Source of the DNA: Escherichia phage vB-Eco-KMB39
Reading direction: 5' to 3' (one strand)
Sequence record: OR539219.1
DNA: 64,000 nt
Shown: piece after piece, positions 8,508-48,764 of the stretch
Numbering within the stretch: position 1 is the first letter of the stretch
Layout of the letters: every line of letters starts with the position of its first letter
Made by a program: the position numbers and the translations under genes
Notes under the pieces: model-generated
Databases searched by the model: none
What the model saw: the letters and a program-made list of their open reading frames with translations, nothing else
What the model was told of the DNA's origin: nothing

Positions 8508-9167
8508 TTAATTTATTAGACTTCTTAAACGAGCAGAAGTCATAAATGGAAATTTTTCTAAAGTTGGCTTTCGCCAATATCTTGGATGACAAGTTGATTT
8601 AAAATCAAGAACAATTTTCTTTGCTTCATCAATAGTGTTAACTCCAAAGTTATCTAACATTATTTTCTTTTCTTTTTCCCACCGTTTATTAGCTAAAGCA
8701 GATTGAAGCTTTTTGTTTTTAAATGTGTCATTTTTTCTAGAATGAGTTGTGCCTTGTGTCGGACTCCATCCTCTTCCTAAAATAAATCCCTCAGGAATTA
8801 TATCTCCATCATGTAATTTTATACATCTTTTACCATTATTATAATATTTTCGTCCAGTTTGTGTATTTGAAATATTATTTACATGTTTTCTTTTTAACCA
8901 ACCATAAACTTTATTATTTCTCCTAACATATTTAGTTGAAACCGTCATTTTTATGGCTGCATAAGATAATTTTAAAGAATTTGGGTGTATTTTTACTAAT
9001 AGCTGATGTGCAACATAATGCTCTTCTGGAGTTAAATCAACCAAGTTAGAAGCATCATTACTACCGCCTAAACATTTCGGAATAATATGATGTCTTTCTT
9101 TATATCCAGTAAGGGCTCTATTGCGAGCCCTATCAATTAGTGAATTATAAATTTTTTCATAATTCAT
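8508..9167 (-). CDS. HNH homing endonuclease with NUMOD-like C-terminal repeats, inserted between genes 3 and 2
   Basis: Motif [29 protein letters not shown]; ATG 9167 overlaps the gp2 stop (ATGA); paralogue of 46927..47619. Confidence 0.75.
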
Positions 9168-42643: not shown

Positions 42644-44062
42644 TTATGGATAGGTATAGATGATACCAGTTTCTAAAGCAGTTTTATGAATGATGTATCC
42701 ATTACGCGATTCTTGAACATCAACTTCTGGATAGTCTTTCATCATCTTCTGAAGAGTGTAACGATGCAAGTAGTACTTACTATCTGGATCGTCAGTTTTC
42801 CAATCTTTACCTTCTTCAGTCATTTTTTGGATTTCATCCATAACCCACCAACCGCACCAGATATAAGCTGAAGTACGATGTGGAAGAGGATGAACATAAG
42901 GCAATTCACCTTCTGGTTCCGGAGCAACTTTATCAGTTACCTGAACTTGACCAGTCGCTTTAACTGTTTTACTATCATAGTCAGTTGCTGTAACGACAGC
43001 AGTAACTTCAATAGTTTGGCTTCCAATAGATGAGGTATCAACAGTATATACGTTAGTTGACCCTTCTACAGGAGAAGAATCTTTCTTCCATGAATACGTA
43101 ATTTGTGCTTCTTCCGGAGCATCCGTAACATTAGCGGTAAATGTAGCCGAAGCATCTTGCTGAACATTAATAGAAGGAGGAGTCAATGTAACCTGTGGAT
43201 TCATTGTCTTCTTATTAACCGTTAATGATACTTCATTAGAAGTAACTGTTTTTGCGTCGTAATCCGTTGCTGTTACTTGGGCTATGCATTTAATTTTTTT
43301 AACTCCAGCCACAGTTGGAGTATAGTTAAATGTAGAGTTAGTTTCTCCATCAACTTGTGAATCATCTACATACCACTGATACGTGGCAGACGCTCCATCA
43401 GGTTGAGAAGCTAAGGCAGCAGTAAATTGAACCGGGGTTCCAATTACTCCAGCAGCAGGACTATCAGGAGTTACTGCCAAGGTAGTTGTCTGCGTCTTTT
43501 TATTAACAGTCAGTGACACTTCATTAGAAGTAACTTCCTTTGTATCATAATCTGCCGCGGTTACTTGAGCTACACACTTAATTGTTTTAACTCCGCTTGT
43601 GGAAGGAGTGTAATTAAATGTAGCAGAAGTTGCTTCGCCCACAGGAGAACCGTCAACGTACCATTGATATGTAGCAGTTGCGCCCGATGGCTGCGAAGCT
43701 AAAGCAGCAGTAAATTCAACAGCTGTTCCAATTACTCCTTCTGGAGGACTATTAGGAGTTACAGCTAAAGTAGTTGTCTGTGTCTTATTTTGAACTGTGA
43801 TAGTTGTAGTAGCTTCTGCTGTTTCAGCATCAGTATCTGGAACTGGGTTTGTTGCAACTACTTTAATAGTTTTTTGACCGGCAGGTCCTTTTAATACATA
43901 ACTAAAAGTTGCAGATGTTTCTTCCTGTGGAACATCATCTACAGTCCAAGCATATGTAATAGGTCCATCTCCAGTTTGACCACTGGGTGTAGCAGTAAAC
44001 TGCTGAGTCTGATCTATAACTCCAGTAGGTGTTTTAGGAGTTATATCAACTGTAAAAGCCAT
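42644..44062 (-). CDS. hoc: outer capsid protein Hoc, four Ig-like repeats plus capsid-binding C-terminus
   Basis: 472 aa; two near-identical ~96-aa Ig-like repeats in tandem plus two diverged ones; position between rnlB and inh. Confidence 0.8.
   Translation of the reverse strand: MAFTVDITPKTPTGVIDQTQQFTATPSGQTGDGPITYAWTVDDVPQEETSATFSYVLKGPAGQKTIKVVATNPVPDTDAETAEATTTITVQNKTQTTTLAVTPNSPPEGVIGTAVEFTAALASQPSGATATYQWYVDGSPVGEATSATFNYTPSTSGVKTIKCVAQVTAADYDTKEVTSNEVSLTVNKKTQTTTLAVTPDSPAAGVIGTPVQFTAALASQPDGASATYQWYVDDSQVDGETNSTFNYTPTVAGVKKIKCIAQVTATDYDAKTVTSNEVSLTVNKKTMNPQVTLTPPSINVQQDASATFTANVTDAPEEAQITYSWKKDSSPVEGSTNVYTVDTSSIGSQTIEVTAVVTATDYDSKTVKATGQVQVTDKVAPEPEGELPYVHPLPHRTSAYIWCGWWVMDEIQKMTEEGKDWKTDDPDSKYYLHRYTLQKMMKDYPEVDVQESRNGYIIHKTALETGIIYTYP
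43205..43780 (-). repeat. tandem duplication of a 288-bp Ig-like domain unit inside hoc
   Basis: Units 43493..43780 and 43205..43492 encode QTTTLAVTP...SNEVSLTVNKKT twice, with high identity at DNA level. Confidence 0.65.
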
Positions 44063-44765: not shown

Positions 44766-44773
44766 TATAAATA
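44766..44773 (+). promoter_or_regulatory. late promoter TATAAATA upstream of segE
   Basis: Exact TATAAATA 29 nt upstream of the segE ATG. Confidence 0.45.
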
Positions 44774-44801: not shown

Positions 44802-45419
44802 ATGTACCACTTTGTATATGAAACAACAAATCTAATAAACGGTAAAAAGTATATAGGAAAACACTCTACTGATGACTTGAATGATGGTTACCTTGGTTCC
44901 GGTAAGGCAATTCAGCAGGCTATAAAGAAATATGGTGAAAACAATTTCTCTAGAACAATACTAAAAGAGTTTAAAACTTCCGAAGAAGCGTACATGTATG
45001 AAGAAGAAATTATAACTCCTGAAATAATAAAAAGCAAAAATTATTATAATATGAAACCTGGTGGAATTGGTGGAATTGTTATGACTACAGAGGTTATAGC
45101 AAAGATGAAAGAATCTTCCGCTAAGAGATTTGAAAACTCACCGGGCACGGTATTAGGTACAACTTGTTACACCAATGGAACTAAAAATATTTTTATTAAA
45201 CCTGGAGAACTTGTTCCAGAAGGATTTGTAAAAGGGATGGTTCATCCTAATAGAAAGTCCAGAAAAGGATGTAAAGTCAAACCGACTACCACAGGAACTT
45301 TTTGGGTCAATAATGGCGCAATAAATAAATTAATACAACCAGACGGTATTATTCCCGACGGATTTATTAAAGGTCGTCTCATGAAAAGAGATTCTAAAGG
45401 CAAATTTAGTAAGGCATAA
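44802..45419 (+). CDS. segE: GIY-YIG homing endonuclease
   Basis: GIY-YIG motifs FVYETTNLINGKKYIGKH and YLGSG; position before uvsW as in T4 (memory). Confidence 0.75.
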   Translation: MYHFVYETTNLINGKKYIGKHSTDDLNDGYLGSGKAIQQAIKKYGENNFSRTILKEFKTSEEAYMYEEEIITPEIIKSKNYYNMKPGGIGGIVMTTEVIAKMKESSAKRFENSPGTVLGTTCYTNGTKNIFIKPGELVPEGFVKGMVHPNRKSRKGCKVKPTTTGTFWVNNGAINKLIQPDGIIPDGFIKGRLMKRDSKGKFSKA

Positions 45420-45421
45420 TT

Positions 45422-46930
45422 ATGGATATTAAAGTACATTTTCACGACTTCAGTCATGTACGCATCGATTGTGAAGAGAGCACGTTCCACGAATTAAGAG
45501 ATTTCTTTTCGTTTGAGGCAGATGGATATAGGTTTAATCCTCGCTTCAGATATGGCAACTGGGATGGACGAATCCGTCTTTTAGATTATAATCGTCTTCT
45601 TCCGTTCGGCTTAGTCGGGCAAATTAAAAAGTTCTGCGATAACTTTGGCTATAAAGCCTGGATTGACCCTCAAATTAATGAAAAAGAAGAATTATCAAGA
45701 AAAGATTTTGATGAATGGCTTTCTAAATTAGAAATCTATTCAGGAAATAAAAGAATTGAACCACACTGGTATCAAAAAGATGCAGTGTTCGAAGGATTAG
45801 TTAATCGTCGCAGAATTCTTAATCTTCCAACATCCGCAGGTAAATCTTTAATTCAAGCTTTGCTTGCACGTTATTATTTGGAAAATTATGAAGGTAAAAT
45901 TCTTATCATTGTTCCAACAACTGCTCTGACAACTCAGATGGCTGATGACTTTGTTGACTATCGTTTATTCAGTCATGCAATGATAAAGAAAATCGGCGGC
46001 GGAGCATCAAAAGATGATAAATATAAAAATGATGCACCAGTCGTCGTTGGTACATGGCAAACTGTAGTTAAACAACCGAAAGAATGGTTCTCACAGTTTG
46101 GAATGATGATGAATGATGAATGTCATCTTGCTACAGGAAAAAGTATTTCATCTATCATATCAGGATTAAATAACTGTATGTTTAAATTTGGTCTATCAGG
46201 TTCATTACGTGATGGCAAAGCCAATATCATGCAGTATGTTGGAATGTTTGGTGAAATATTTAAACCAGTAACGACTTCTAAATTAATGGAAGATGGACAA
46301 GTAACTGAGCTAAAAATTAATAGTATTTTTCTTCGCTATCCCGATGAGTTCACTACTAAATTAAAGGGAAAAACTTACCAAGAAGAAATAAAAATTATTA
46401 CTGGACTCAGTAAAAGAAATAAATGGATTGCTAAATTAGCTATTAAACTTGCACAAAAAGATGAAAACGCTTTTGTCATGTTTAAGCATGTATCACATGG
46501 TAAAGCTATTTTCGATTTAATTAAAAATGAATACGATAAAGTTTATTACGTATCAGGGGAAGTTGATACCGAAACACGCAACGTAATGAAAACCCTAGCT
46601 GAAAACGGTAAAGGAATAATTATAGTAGCTAGTTATGGTGTATTTTCTACTGGTATTTCAGTTAAAAATCTGCATCACGTTGTTTTAGCGCACGGTGTTA
46701 AATCAAAAATCATTGTATTACAAACAATCGGTCGTGTATTACGTAAGCATGGTTCTAAGACAATAGCAACAGTCTGGGATCTTATAGATGACGCGGGCGT
46801 AGTTTCTAAATCAAAAACATCTTCTAAAAAATACTCGCATTTAAACTATCTTTTAAAACATGGACTTGATCGTATTCAGCGTTATGCTGATGAAAAGTTT
46901 AATTATGTGATGAAAGAGGTTAAACTTTGA
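45422..46930 (+). CDS. uvsW: UvsW helicase (SF2, DECH box)
   Basis: 502 aa; Walker A PTSAGKS, DECH at MMMNDECHL. Confidence 0.9.
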   Translation: MDIKVHFHDFSHVRIDCEESTFHELRDFFSFEADGYRFNPRFRYGNWDGRIRLLDYNRLLPFGLVGQIKKFCDNFGYKAWIDPQINEKEELSRKDFDEWLSKLEIYSGNKRIEPHWYQKDAVFEGLVNRRRILNLPTSAGKSLIQALLARYYLENYEGKILIIVPTTALTTQMADDFVDYRLFSHAMIKKIGGGASKDDKYKNDAPVVVGTWQTVVKQPKEWFSQFGMMMNDECHLATGKSISSIISGLNNCMFKFGLSGSLRDGKANIMQYVGMFGEIFKPVTTSKLMEDGQVTELKINSIFLRYPDEFTTKLKGKTYQEEIKIITGLSKRNKWIAKLAIKLAQKDENAFVMFKHVSHGKAIFDLIKNEYDKVYYVSGEVDTETRNVMKTLAENGKGIIIVASYGVFSTGISVKNLHHVVLAHGVKSKIIVLQTIGRVLRKHGSKTIATVWDLIDDAGVVSKSKTSSKKYSHLNYLLKHGLDRIQRYADEKFNYVMKEVKL

Positions 46931-47619
46931 ATTATAAATTAATATATGATAATTTAATTAATAGAGCCCAGAATCGGGCTCGCCTTAATGGATACACTGA
47001 AACACATCATATAATTCCTAGATGTATGGGTGGTACAAATGATAAGTGTAATTTAGTAGAACTAACGGCTGAAGAACATTTTATAGCCCATAAACTTTTA
47101 GCTAAAATTCATCCAAACCATTACGGTATAATTAAAGCTGTTATATGTATGGGGATGAATTCAAATACTCATGAAAGACACGTCAATAAATCTTACGCAT
47201 GGGAACGTCGTAAAATGGCAGAACTTCAATCCGGCGAAGGTAATCCATTTTACGGAAAACACCATACGGAAGAACATAAACAATATATGTCAAAACTCAT
47301 GAAAAGTCGTCCAATTACATGGGGAAATAAAATTAGTAAAACTAAAAGAATGAACCCAACGAAATGGACTGAAGAAGCTAAAAGATTACATTCAATCAAT
47401 CAATCGGGTAAAAATAACGGCATGTATGGAAGGAAACATTCCGCTAAATCTATTCAGAAAATTAAAGATAACATGCCAGATAATTCAGGAGCTAATAACC
47501 CAGCTGCTAAACCTATAGAAGTAAATGGTGTTAAGTATAAATGTATGAAAGATGCTTCTAAAGCTACTGGATTATCAATGTACAAACTAAGAATACTTAG
47601 AAAAACAGTTAATTTATAA
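46927..47619 (+). CDS. HNH homing endonuclease with NUMOD-like repeats, inserted between uvsW and uvsW.1
   Basis: Motif HHIIPRCMGGTNDKCNLVELTAEEHFIAH; apparent TTG start overlapping the uvsW stop (TTGA); paralogue of 8508..9167. Confidence 0.7.
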   Translation: MNYKLIYDNLINRAQNRARLNGYTETHHIIPRCMGGTNDKCNLVELTAEEHFIAHKLLAKIHPNHYGIIKAVICMGMNSNTHERHVNKSYAWERRKMAELQSGEGNPFYGKHHTEEHKQYMSKLMKSRPITWGNKISKTKRMNPTKWTEEAKRLHSINQSGKNNGMYGRKHSAKSIQKIKDNMPDNSGANNPAAKPIEVNGVKYKCMKDASKATGLSMYKLRILRKTVNL

Positions 47620-47631
47620 GGGCTTCGGCCC
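47620..47631 (+). terminator. UUCG-type hairpin after the HNH gene
   Basis: GGGC-TTCG-GCCC followed by TTTGG; weak. Confidence 0.3.
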
Positions 47632-47644
47632 TTTGGAGAAAAAG

Positions 47645-47875
47645 ATGTTACTAGAATTTAAACAATTTCTTTATGAAGCTTCTATTGATGAATTTATGGG
47701 TAAAATTGCCTCTTGTCAAACATTAGAAGGTTTAGAAGAACTTGAAGCTTATTATAAGAAAAGAGTTAAAGAAACTGAATTAAAAGATACTGATGACATC
47801 TCTGTGAGAGATGCTTTGGCAGGAAAAAGAGCTGAATTAGAAGATTCAGATGATGAAGTAGAAGAAAGCTTTTAA
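47645..47875 (+). CDS. uvsW.1: UvsW.1, small acidic helicase-associated protein
   Basis: Start moved from track 47633 to ATG 47645 (MLLEFKQFLYEA..., GGAGAAAAAG RBS); acidic C-terminus. Confidence 0.7.
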   Translation: MLLEFKQFLYEASIDEFMGKIASCQTLEGLEELEAYYKKRVKETELKDTDDISVRDALAGKRAELEDSDDEVEESF

Positions 47876-47930
47876 ATTAAAAAAGGCCCAACCAAAAAGG
47901 AAGGGCCAAAACTATAGACTAAAGGTCACA

Positions 47931-48098
47931 CTATAGCAAAAGTTGTGTTTCATTTAATTGTTCTTCCGAACTTTCTGAAACTGGTAGTTCTTTAATGTAA
48001 TTATAACAAGGCCCAGGATGTACAGGACCTTTGTCTGTTTCAACAACCAATGCAGAATCGATTGGAGTTTTACAGACAACACAAATCTTATCTGACAT
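47931..48098 (-). CDS. small zinc-ribbon protein, not in ORF track (55 aa)
   Basis: Hand translation MSDKICVVCKTPIDSALVVETDKGPVHPGPCYNY... with AGGAG RBS; CxxC plus second Cys; uvsY.-1-like position. Confidence 0.45.
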   Translation of the reverse strand: MSDKICVVCKTPIDSALVVETDKGPVHPGPCYNYIKELPVSESSEEQLNETQLLL

Positions 48099-48126
48099 GA
48101 TTGTCTCCTCTAAATTATATATCTAT

Positions 48127-48351
48127 TTATATAACTCTCATATGCATATCAATACCCATATCTTTAGAATAAAAATATTCATCAAGATATCCAGCAAATT
48201 TTCCTTTAATATAAAGGACATCTTCACCACACGGGTGGTCGGCCAGGATACGAATATCCTGACGCTTAAGATTATACTTTTTCATTAAGAATTGAATCTC
48301 AGTTTCAAATTCTTCTTCATAATTAAAAGCATCATCAATGCTATATCTCAT
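48127..48351 (-). CDS. hypothetical protein (uvsY.-2-like position)
   Basis: 74-aa ORF whose stop overlaps the uvsY start. Confidence 0.55.
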   Translation of the reverse strand: MRYSIDDAFNYEEEFETEIQFLMKKYNLKRQDIRILADHPCGEDVLYIKGKFAGYLDEYFYSKDMGIDMHMRVI

Positions 48352-48764
48352 TATTTTCCAGCCTCAAATGCTCGCATGTCTTGAATGTGCTTAATAGCAA
48401 ATCCACGTGATTTAATAGCATCAAGAGCTCCGCTACAGAAATCTAATAAAATCCCCCAATACTGTAACGAGGTATCAACCTTTAAAACATCCTTATCAGC
48501 TGATAGAACTGTCTTCATTTCTGATTTCTCGTAACGATCCATACTAAATTCATCACCATCTCCTCGTCCCGAGTAGTAGTCTAATTTAGCTTTAAGAGCA
48601 ACTTTCTTTTGCGCGTCAATTCTAAGCATTTCCTTTTTAATACTTGAATGCTTATTAAGCCATTTACTATATAACATCACATTATTAGCTGCTTCATACT
48701 GTAATTTAGTCGAATCTATAAACACATCTTTCTTCAATTCTTCTTGAAGATCTTCTAATCTCAT
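48351..48764 (-). CDS. uvsY: recombination mediator UvsY
   Basis: 137 aa MRLEDLQEELKKDVFIDSTKLQYEAANN..., recognised. Confidence 0.9.
   Translation of the reverse strand: MRLEDLQEELKKDVFIDSTKLQYEAANNVMLYSKWLNKHSSIKKEMLRIDAQKKVALKAKLDYYSGRGDGDEFSMDRYEKSEMKTVLSADKDVLKVDTSLQYWGILLDFCSGALDAIKSRGFAIKHIQDMRAFEAGK

Follow-up and report, generated by a model that had tools for sequence, protein, structure and literature searches.

The junction between uvsW and uvsW.1 in Escherichia phage vB-Eco-KMB39 (sequence record OR539219.1) is occupied by an additional open reading frame (ORF), which raises the question of what this gene is, where its translation begins, and how it came to lie between two phage genes. 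Coordinates below are those of the window, the whole stretch of 64,000 nucleotides (nt) that was analyzed. A first-pass annotation of the window had placed an HNH endonuclease ORF at this junction, and its position and neighbors were confirmed as follows:

44802 to 45419, plus strand: segE, a GIY-YIG free-standing homing endonuclease gene (Pfam SegE_GIY-YIG, 3e-09)
45422 to 46930, plus strand: uvsW, helicase gene, 502 amino acids (aa)
46927 to 47619, plus strand: predicted HNH homing endonuclease gene, MobE-like and free-standing, 230 aa, with a very probable TTG start
47645 to 47875, plus strand: uvsW.1, 76 aa (Pfam UvsW-1, E value of 1.5e-30)

Because segE, which is annotated at the equivalent position in T4 and PST, lies upstream and the HNH gene lies downstream, uvsW is flanked by two homing endonuclease genes. 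T4 SegE is listed as targeting uvsW (table in PMC2988022). Like SegE, the HNH gene is a neighboring selfish element with uvsW as the common host gene; unlike SegE, it belongs to another nuclease family and sits at the opposite end of uvsW.

Judged by its sequence, the gene belongs to the T4 MobE-like HNH family of free-standing homing endonuclease genes and is an ordinary selfish phage gene. The protein matches PHROG 655 ("homing endonuclease") at 3.9e-60 over residues 1 to 217, and tblastn against the T4 mobE locus gave 42% identity over the N-terminal 168 aa. Its context is free-standing, with uvsW and uvsW.1 directly adjoining it. The group I intron context given by some annotators was ruled out by an Rfam search of positions 45000 to 48500, where families including group I introns were unmatched at E values up to 1 and a single chance miRNA match was returned. 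Three parts of the protein were delimited:

46993 to 47109, plus strand: HNH catalytic core, residues 23 to 61 (alignments, family profile, and AlphaFold2 model)
47206 to 47481, plus strand: two NUMOD3 motifs and linker, residues ~94 to 122 and ~161 to 185
47503 to 47610, plus strand: C-terminal two-strand, two-helix module, residues ~193 to 228, resembling the I-TevI DNA-binding domain

Residues Y23, H28, N42, H51, and H55 are invariant among 52 homologues, and E25 and H27 are at least 90% conserved. The family profile matches the McrA HNH domain (6ghc) at 3.5e-4, with E-HH-P-GG-N-L-H aligned, and a Cas8-HNH domain aligned too; the Pfam HNH score of 16.2 bits is under the cutoff of 21.4. A single-sequence AlphaFold2 model was unusable (pLDDT of 42), and a model built with the 52 homologues was used instead (mean pLDDT of 89.5; ~95 in the HNH core). 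There, strands at residues 25 to 28 and 43 to 46 and a helix at residues 48 to 61 form a predicted beta-beta-alpha unit. NUMOD3 (PF07460) was matched in two stretches at 51.8 bits (7.6e-14; cutoff, 20.4), the bounds of the second being estimated from the repeat GxNNxxYGxxHS, and this part of the protein probably serves as an extended DNA-binding segment. Beyond it, the best match by sequence and by fold was the I-TevI DNA-binding domain: residues ~157 to 216 align to it with an E value of 0.006, and Foldseek returned it with a probability of 1.00, a TM score of 0.53, and 27% identity, while the Pfam I-TevI_DNA-bd score of 14.7 is under the cutoff of 27. As in the I-TevI domain (PDB 1i3j and 1t2t), a NUMOD3-type motif is followed by a predicted helix-turn-helix, whereas the catalytic domain of I-TevI is of the GIY-YIG type and that described here is HNH. 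I-HmuI, the SPO1 HNH nicking endonuclease (PDB 1u3e), is intron encoded; the match to it is not significant, and it is used as a working analogy only.

The gene is already annotated in T6 and is therefore a known gene. It is carried by 48 of 497 Tequatrovirus-type records (about 10%), namely, T6, PST, and 46 others, with identical junctions; T4 and about 449 other related records have no HNH gene between uvsW and uvsW.1. Orthologues at the same junction occur in seven other T4-like lineages, other genera included, and are present in 13 Jiaodavirus-type and 4 Gaprivervirus records. These comparisons drew on GenBank phage records and on contigs encoding homologues; an IMG/VR scan yielded two close relatives only. 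The first-pass annotation had called for the junction to be compared among relatives, and an orthologue at the site proved not to be universal. Alignment with T4 and with other genomes lacking a homing endonuclease gene at the junction (HEG-less genomes) defined the boundaries of the element, 46915/46916 on the left and 47601/47602 on the right, and the sequences around them:

46760 to 46915, plus strand: foreign tract of about 155 nt at the uvsW 3' end, with 72 to 82% identity to T4 compared with 97 to 100% elsewhere (sliding identity)
46916 to 46930, plus strand: substitute uvsW end, GAG GTT AAA CTT TGA (EVKL*), from the T4 alignment; includes GAGG and TTG
47602 to 47619, plus strand: original uvsW end, AAA ACA GTT AAT TTA TAA (KTVNL*), now the last codons and stop of the endonuclease ORF
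47620 to 47631, plus strand: hairpin GGGCUUCGGCCC with a UUCG loop, between the HNH gene and uvsW.1
47635 to 47638, plus strand: GGAG, Shine-Dalgarno sequence of uvsW.1, 3' of the UUCG hairpin

The element was inserted five codons short of the uvsW stop. HEG-less genomes align with the window only as far as 46915 on the left and match it at 100% from exactly 47602 on the right; the UUCG hairpin and the GGAG before uvsW.1 are native in those of the T4 type. On these alignments, the EVKL* end is one that was brought in with the element, and the native uvsW end AAAGAGGTTATTATTTGA of a metagenomic phage contig (L105) resembles it. The element had been described as splitting uvsW from uvsW.1. This did not hold, as the two are separate ORFs in all HEG-less T4-like phages and the element sits inside the last five uvsW codons. 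A split created by the endonuclease, or a fused uvsW/uvsW.1 form, was rejected on the literature and on all empty sites examined, which have two ORFs; the single uvsW ORF of the T4 RefSeq record stems from an old sequencing error, and an apparent fusion or stop in vB_KpnM_GF likewise looks like a sequence error. An endonuclease ORF that ends in a duplicated uvsW end is clear in the T6 type and Gaprivervirus only, is shorter in Roth16, and is absent or degenerate in the remaining orthologous lineages; this lineage comparison rules out a universal duplication.

The left flank of the element differs between carriers and noncarriers. Over positions 46640 to 46926, identity to the window is 95% or more in the 48 carriers and 80 to 90% in 445 noncarriers. 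The tract at 46760 to 46915 is linked to the endonuclease gene and would be a co-converted donor flank, the cleavage-site region, or both, which gives T4-type uvsW a candidate target region. OES_C-1 is a recombinant that has the foreign block without the HNH gene, and a carrier/noncarrier pair in Gaprivervirus shows no special flank divergence; on account of these two results, the target site is not located. The distribution and the flank suggest how the gene would spread. During mixed infection, the protein would bind the 3' region of a co-infecting phage's HEG-less uvsW and would nick or cut it, and repair off the carrier genome would copy in the gene together with its left flank.

Homing might instead have been lost and the element kept for a benefit to the phage, such as the exclusion of competitor markers or an influence on uvsW and uvsW.1 expression. 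Purifying selection persists, and since the element supplies the UvsW C terminus and stop, its precise loss is constrained. In Gaprivervirus carriers and four further lineages, moreover, the start of uvsW.1 overlaps the stop of the endonuclease gene, so that the coupling chain extends to uvsW.1. In the window, however, uvsW.1 retains the hairpin and GGAG of HEG-less phages unchanged. An active homing cycle, moreover, usually shows itself in features like those seen here: patchy distribution, a foreign flank, a recombinant such as OES_C-1, and a copy in decay. We therefore regard retention for phage benefit as improbable and continue with the reading of the gene as a homing element.

Where translation of this element begins bears on whether it encodes a nuclease at all, and the region around the uvsW stop contains these signals:

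46916 to 46919, plus strand: Shine-Dalgarno sequence GAGG, 7 nt 5' of the TTG
46921 to 46923, plus strand: TAA in the HNH frame, two codons before the TTG and followed by ACT and TTG only
46927 to 46929, plus strand: TTG, the very probable start of the HNH gene, overlapping the uvsW stop TGA at 46928 to 46930

The gene very probably starts at the weak TTG at 46927, overlapping the uvsW stop. The first-pass annotation had proposed this TTG as the only in-frame start after the GAGG, and both parts of the proposal stand: TTG and GAGG are invariant in all 48 carriers, a TAA lies just upstream, and the next in-frame ATG, GTG, or TTG does not occur until codon 34, at 47026. In seven homologues that begin MNY or MDY, an ATG stands at the position aligned with the TTG. 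Among eight orthologous lineages, the start overlaps the uvsW stop in every one (ATG in four, TTG in three, and GTG in one); the overlap, TTGA here, takes the form NTGA or TAATG across the eight, and the first base of the start codon is A, T, or G.

Some GenBank annotators hold that the TTG is unused and that translation starts at the ATG at 47026 (Met34) or does not occur, the gene being a decaying remnant. The orthologous internal ATG is annotated as the start in W143, UPEC01, and pEC-M719-6WT.2, and TTG starts are rare, with none among the 85 coding sequences annotated in the first 50 kb of T4, the sample used for start codon usage. The BF15 copy is truncated, and the HY03/ZN18 sublineage carries G35D, a change at a position where at least 90% of homologues have glycine, so the activity of some copies may be impaired. 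Against an internal start, the Met34 product would be without Y23, E25, H27, and H28, residues that are invariant or nearly so in the family and that include catalytic histidines, and the N-terminal MNYxxIY is conserved family-wide. Between sublineages, codons 2 to 33 differ by two synonymous and no nonsynonymous changes, and the GAGG and TTG do not vary in the 48 records. Against a remnant, the whole ORF differs between sublineages by ~19 synonymous and 4 to 5 nonsynonymous codons. Taken together, these observations make an internal start or a remnant unlikely and argue for the TTG. The comparative evidence fixes the start of a gene that is inconsistently annotated: public records give the same gene as having a TTG start, as starting at an internal ATG, which eliminates the active site, as "hypothetical," as "mobD," and as "group I intron endonuclease."

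The window contains another gene of this family:

8508 to 9167, minus strand: MobE-like HNH paralogue at the gene 2/gene 3 junction, with an ATG start that overlaps the stop of gene 2 (ATGA)

The first-pass annotation had assigned both ORFs to one family, with N-terminal 70 aa about 60% identical, and had taken the pair as a sign of recent intragenomic spread. The first two points were borne out: both proteins fall in PHROG 655 (1e-58 for the 8508-9167 protein), and 43 of their first 70 residues (61%) are identical (BLASTP, 54/96 or 56%; E value of 5e-34). If the uvsW junction gene were a recent duplicate of the 8508-9167 copy within this genome, the shared family, the 56 to 61% identity of the N-terminal domain, and the overlap (NTGA) of the start of each copy with the stop of the gene upstream would follow. 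The DNA, however, is 70.5% identical over the first 190 nt only, the proteins have no similarity past residue 96, and the C-terminal DNA-binding halves are unrelated. Carriage is also independent, with partial overlap: the gene 2/3 copy occurs in 36 of 503 related records, RB32 and RB33 included, compared with 48 for the uvsW junction gene; ESh30, KFS-EC3, and HY03 have both, and Pinarejo has the gene 2/3 copy and a HEG-less uvsW junction. Finally, other phages carry orthologues of each copy at the corresponding site, those of the uvsW junction gene extending to other genera. Recent duplication is thus very unlikely, and the suggested intragenomic spread was not upheld. The production of a UvsW-HNH fusion by ribosomal frameshifting is scarcely credible, for although the HNH frame is -1 relative to uvsW with a 4-nt overlap, the TAA two codons before the TTG confines any shift to AAA CTT TGA, where there is no slippery heptamer, and orthologues keep the stop/start overlap with different sequence.

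For the homing gene read from its TTG, signals that may govern expression were sought in and upstream of the ORF:

44766 to 44773, plus strand: exact match to the T4 late promoter consensus, TATAAATA, 29 nt upstream of segE
46894 to 46928, plus strand: predicted RNA hairpin over the ribosome binding site (RBS), with arms at 46894 to 46904 and 46918 to 46928
46964 to 46981, plus strand: GC-rich hairpin GAGCCC-AGAAUC-GGGCUC, ORF nt 38 to 55

The TATAAATA at 44766 is the only exact plus-strand match from there to 49881; in the window as a whole, there are 25 exact matches compared with 10 expected. From T4 biology and a review (PMC2988022), this promoter would drive one late transcript of segE, uvsW, the HNH gene, and uvsW.1. 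The sequence TATAAATT at 46932 to 46939, within the ORF, was rejected as a late promoter on its inexact consensus and its absence from orthologues. A scan for sigma-70 promoters was not enriched (10 found and 14 expected) and was not used.

The 3' arm of the RBS hairpin runs from the last two G residues of the GAGG through the spacer into the first two bases of the UUG. Its predicted energy is -8.7 kcal/mol (z score of -2.9), a value equaled by 3 of 200 shuffles; the DK-13 and Roth16 orthologues lack the hairpin, which is therefore weakly supported. The GC-rich hairpin inside the ORF is conserved by position, not by sequence, in all orthologues, the window paralogue, and T4 mobE. The stems fall in two registers, and synonymous recodings served as the control. 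Including that of T4 mobE, nine other genes have the hairpin at nt 32 to 57, and in 10 of 10 genes it is more stable than synonymous recodings; that of the 46927 gene is the weakest of the ten (115 of 2,000 recodings as stable). In T4 mobE, the hairpin at the equivalent position has been documented as a weak internal terminator, and overlap-based translational coupling has been proposed for mobE (PMC2988022). Here, no U-tract follows the stem, GCCUUAAUGG coming next, and for that reason the ORF hairpin is not classed as a terminator.

These features suggest the following scheme. The HNH gene, without a promoter of its own, would be carried on the late segE-uvsW transcript, and the UUG at 46927 would support low-level translation by ribosomes that end at the overlapping uvsW UGA and then reinitiate or by ribosomes that use the GAGG 7 nt upstream; the RBS hairpin and the GC-rich hairpin would reduce expression further. 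The tightly limited expression suggested in the first-pass annotation is accordingly plausible. We consider the account as a whole (a MobE-like homing gene with a UUG start, read from a late read-through transcript and homing into HEG-less uvsW) to be likely. It leaves the current understanding of homing endonucleases unchanged.

More tentatively, and with somewhat less than even confidence, we propose that the uvsW junction endonucleases and T4 mobE may share an undescribed conserved expression module, consisting of a start embedded in the host gene's stop and a hairpin within the ORF. The first base of the start may coincide with the wobble position of the final host gene codon and so drift among AUG, UUG, and GUG, with the overlap kept in 8 of 8 lineages; such drift fits reinitiation at the overlap. 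The second part, the GC-rich hairpin at nt 32 to 57, may be kept by compensatory changes while the peptide varies. The hairpin documented in T4 mobE is hereby extended to all ten MobE-like genes examined. Should it function as an attenuator, the family as a whole would have a device for holding nuclease levels low, which could work through transcription, through mRNA decay, or through a block to reinitiating ribosomes.

Like T4 MobE, which is encoded between nrdA and nrdB, the protein belongs to PHROG 655 and comes from a free-standing gene without its own promoter; in both genes the start overlaps the upstream stop (UAAUGA in mobE) and a GC hairpin follows (ORF nt ~33 to 54 in mobE). Unlike mobE, the present gene has another insertion site, another C-terminal DNA-binding region, UUG for AUG, a hairpin without a U-tract, and an ORF that ends in the captured last codons of its host gene. 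Homing endonuclease genes can also interrupt a host gene, as Aeh1 mobE does in nrdA, and a split between genes 39 and 60 is noted in the T4 record. Like the T4 mobA/gene 60 cassette and Aeh1 mobE, the uvsW junction element is an HNH gene in or at the edge of an essential DNA metabolism gene whose function is preserved. It differs from both in that the uvsW/uvsW.1 division predates the element, being present in every HEG-less relative, and in that the replacement is confined to the last five uvsW codons. The locus thus offers a well-delimited example of a homing gene at the stop/start junction of an essential gene pair, neither member of which is harmed, by way of a replacement gene end.

The limits given for ORF 46927-47619 are correct, and the ORF is a genuine, free-standing gene for a predicted homing endonuclease of the MobE-like HNH type. 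The window comes from a T-even phage (Tequatrovirus), with T6 as its nearest record (97.1% identity over 24 kb), and the genes around the ORF are as follows.

44802-45419, plus strand: segE, GIY-YIG endonuclease
45422-46930, plus strand: uvsW
46927-47619, plus strand: HNH homing endonuclease ORF, 230 amino acids
47645-47875, plus strand: uvsW.1 (Pfam UvsW-1, 1.5e-30)

Two homing endonuclease genes of unlike families, segE upstream and the HNH gene downstream, bracket uvsW, which is a known target of SegE (PMC2988022). Farther upstream, hoc (42644-44062, minus strand) encodes 472 amino acids, compared with 376 (1,131 nt) in T4; segments that are visibly repeated suggest one or more additional Ig-like repeats.

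The 46927-47619 protein and that of the copy between genes 2 and 3 (8508-9167, minus strand) both matched PHROG 655, "homing endonuclease" (4e-60 and 1e-58, respectively). The former carries two NUMOD3 motifs (51.8 bits, Pfam cutoff of 20.4), is 42% identical over 168 amino acids to the T4 mobE locus, and aligned with the I-TevI DNA-binding domain (PDB 1i3j; E value of 0.006); Pfam matches to HNH and to the I-TevI DNA-binding domain were weak. Alignment of 52 homologues showed Y3, Y23, H28, P31, C33, G36, N42, L46, E50, H51, H55, and L58 to be invariant, and the family profile matched the McrA HNH domain (3.5e-4). An AlphaFold2 model built on this alignment (mean pLDDT of 89.5) has a beta-beta-alpha core (strands 25 to 28 and 43 to 46, helix 48 to 61) and, at the C terminus, a unit made of two strands and two helices. 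The top hit of a structural search with the model was the I-TevI DNA-binding domain (Foldseek probability of 1.00, E value of 0.18), while HNH domains and I-HmuI appeared at noise level only; the fold evidence is thus supportive, not decisive. The gene is considered free-standing because no Rfam family, group I introns included, was matched in its region.

The first-pass annotation had assigned this ORF a TTG start overlapping the uvsW stop and an N terminus similar to that of 8508-9167, and its position and all of these details were reproduced in the window. The TTG (46927-46929) overlaps the uvsW TGA (46928-46930) and lies 7 nt downstream of a GAGG (46916-46919). The ORF frame is closed by a TAA at 46921-46923; past the TTG, no further ATG, GTG, or TTG occurs until codon 34 (47026). 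Searching with a 70-nt probe that spans the left junction identified 48 carriers of the gene, with the flanks present in 497 related records; 37 carriers were identical over the probe and 11 differed by one synonymous base, outside the GAGG and TTG, which are unchanged in all 48. Metagenomic homologues have an ATG (MNY or MDY) aligned exactly with the TTG. Upstream of Met34, Y23 and H28 are invariant and E25 and H27 are conserved in at least 90% of homologues, so initiation at Met34 would yield a protein lacking the active site. Two sublineages of the gene differ by ~19 synonymous and 4 to 5 nonsynonymous codons over the ORF, with 2 synonymous and no nonsynonymous differences in codons 2 to 33. 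TTG starts are rare in this group (the T4 annotation lists 78 ATG, 7 GTG, and 0 TTG starts over its first 50 kb). On these sequence comparisons, the TTG start is well supported.

Alignment of the window with genomes lacking the gene runs to 46915 on the left and resumes at 47602, with 100% identity, on the right. T4-type uvsW ends ATG AAA/ACA GTT AAT TTA TAA. In the window, this original end (47602-47619, KTVNL*) provides the last codons and stop of the endonuclease ORF, and uvsW carries a substitute end, GAG GTT AAA CTT TGA (EVKL*), that contains the GAGG and TTG; the element therefore lies within uvsW, five codons ahead of the stop. To the left of the element, 155 nt (46760-46915) are 72 to 82% identical to T4, versus 97 to 100% for the remainder of the region. 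Across the final 287 nt of uvsW, identity to the window was ≥95% in all 48 carriers, whereas 445 noncarriers were 80 to 90% identical and four (OES_C-1 and three further records) fell in an intermediate band of 90 to 95%. OES_C-1 (PQ553088) has the foreign uvsW block and a T4-type uvsW end without the endonuclease gene and is the product of either recombination or partial conversion; its carrier-type variable block corresponds to window 46780-46850 and encodes VVSKSKTSSKKYS. A metagenomic T4-like contig has a native uvsW end, AAAGAGGTTATTATTTGA, of the type seen in the substitute, which fits a donor from another lineage. In Gaprivervirus carriers, 17 nt of the uvsW 3′ end (ATTAAACAGGTGGAAAT) form a perfect direct repeat on both sides of the endonuclease gene (1604-1620 and 2299-2315 of the DK-13 record, L089; also in records L098 to L100), so that UvsW and the endonuclease both end in IKQVEI*. 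VR7 (L101) represents the corresponding empty site.

The proposal that the endonuclease split uvsW from uvsW.1 did not hold. The two are separate ORFs in every T4-like phage examined in the literature, and the T4 RefSeq record shows a single 587-amino-acid uvsW ORF owing to an acknowledged sequencing error (PMC1524935, PMC6486255). They were also separate at all four empty sites inspected (OES_C-1, JS98, Phi_KR8, and VR7). The T4 record (NC_000866; L001, 4160-4200) reads TTAATA-AGC where other T4-type genomes have TTATAAGGGC, an error that masks uvsW.1; OES_C-1, which has T4-type flanks, differs from the T4 RefSeq record in having TTATAAGGGC at the uvsW stop. In the partial genome of vB_KpnM_GF (L091, 1585-1625), a premature TAA and one base absent relative to relatives at the uvsW end look like a sequence error rather than a real variant.

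Recent intragenomic spread, also proposed earlier, is contradicted by comparison of the two window copies. Their first 70 residues are 61% identical (43/70) and the alignment extends to 54/96 (56%; E value of 5e-34), with no protein similarity past this stretch and unrelated C-terminal halves; at the DNA level, 70.5% identity over the first 190 nt is all that is shared. The copies also occur separately among phages. The gene 2/3 copy is found in 36 of 503 records, RB32 and RB33 among them, and Pinarejo combines it with a uvsW junction lacking the gene; T6 and PST have the uvsW copy, and ESh30, KFS-EC3, and HY03 have both. The two are old members of one family that were acquired separately and differ in their DNA-binding modules. 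T4 has five mob genes (PMC2988022).

Full-length orthologues (54 to 70% identity) lie between uvsW and uvsW.1 in seven other lineages: Klebsiella Jiaodavirus-type phages (Roth16 and 12 others), Gaprivervirus (DK-13, UPEC01, TH40, and pEC-M719-6WT.2), Morganella phage Rgz1, and four metagenomic contigs. In all eight lineages, the window's included, the start overlaps the uvsW stop (NTGA or TAATG), and the start codon takes its first base from the third position of the final uvsW codon. Four lineages use ATG, three TTG (the T6 type, Gaprivervirus, and metagenomic contig L105), and one GTG. At the other end of the gene, five of the other lineages have an endonuclease stop that overlaps the uvsW.1 start, and in Rgz1 the stop lies 2 nt before that start. 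The simplest reading of this arrangement is that ribosomes may translate the gene by reinitiating after they terminate at uvsW. The first base of the start codon would then matter little, and TTG would be a tolerated low-efficiency variant that need not be a special device.

An exact plus-strand late-promoter consensus occurs only once in the vicinity, at 44766-44773 upstream of segE, and the gene is probably carried on a late transcript from this site. TATAAATT (46932-46939), just inside the ORF 3′ of the TTG, is one base off the T4 late-promoter consensus; it is not present in orthologues and is probably a by-product of Asn-Tyr-Lys-Leu codons. A predicted hairpin at 46894-46928 (−8.7 kcal/mol, z score of −2.9) spans part of the GAGG, the spacer, and two bases of the UUG and showed no conservation in orthologues. 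A second, GC-rich hairpin lies at 46964-46981 (ORF nucleotides 38 to 55). All 10 MobE-like genes compared (eight lineages, the window paralogue, and T4 mobE) have a hairpin 32 to 57 nt into the ORF (window 9112-9131, minus strand, in the paralogue; also in comparison records L004, L089, and L102 to L107). The stems differ in sequence, GAAA is a frequent loop, and the peptide encoded there is variable. In each of the 10 genes the hairpin is stabler than synonymous recodings (1 to 115 of 2,000 recodings were as stable or more), and that of 46927-47619 is the weakest. The T4 mobE hairpin, at the same ORF position, is a weak terminator that stops ~30% of transcripts (PMC2988022), but no U-tract follows the stem in the window gene, and we therefore do not call it a terminator.

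MobE-like homing endonucleases are a well-known kind, and this gene has been annotated before and is uncharacterized. It is missing from T4 at this junction; T6 (AP018814, NC_054907) and Yersinia phage PST have it with the same coordinates and TTG start, as "homing endonuclease" and "mobD," respectively, and further records use assorted other names. No paper describing it was found in the literature. Our analysis adds its exact insertion anatomy, the comparative case for its start codon, the drift among ATG, TTG, and GTG at a retained stop/start overlap, and a family-wide hairpin in the 5′ coding region. In W143 (L086), UPEC01 (L098), and pEC-M719-6WT.2 (L099), an internal ATG is annotated as the start, with loss of the catalytic histidines. 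The BF15 copy (L087) is cut to 195 amino acids, apparently by a small deletion. One sublineage (ZN18, HY03, W143, EC121, KFS-EC3, and NIC06P2) carries G35D (window 47029-47031); residue 35, which adjoins invariant G36, is glycine in at least 90% of the 52 homologues.
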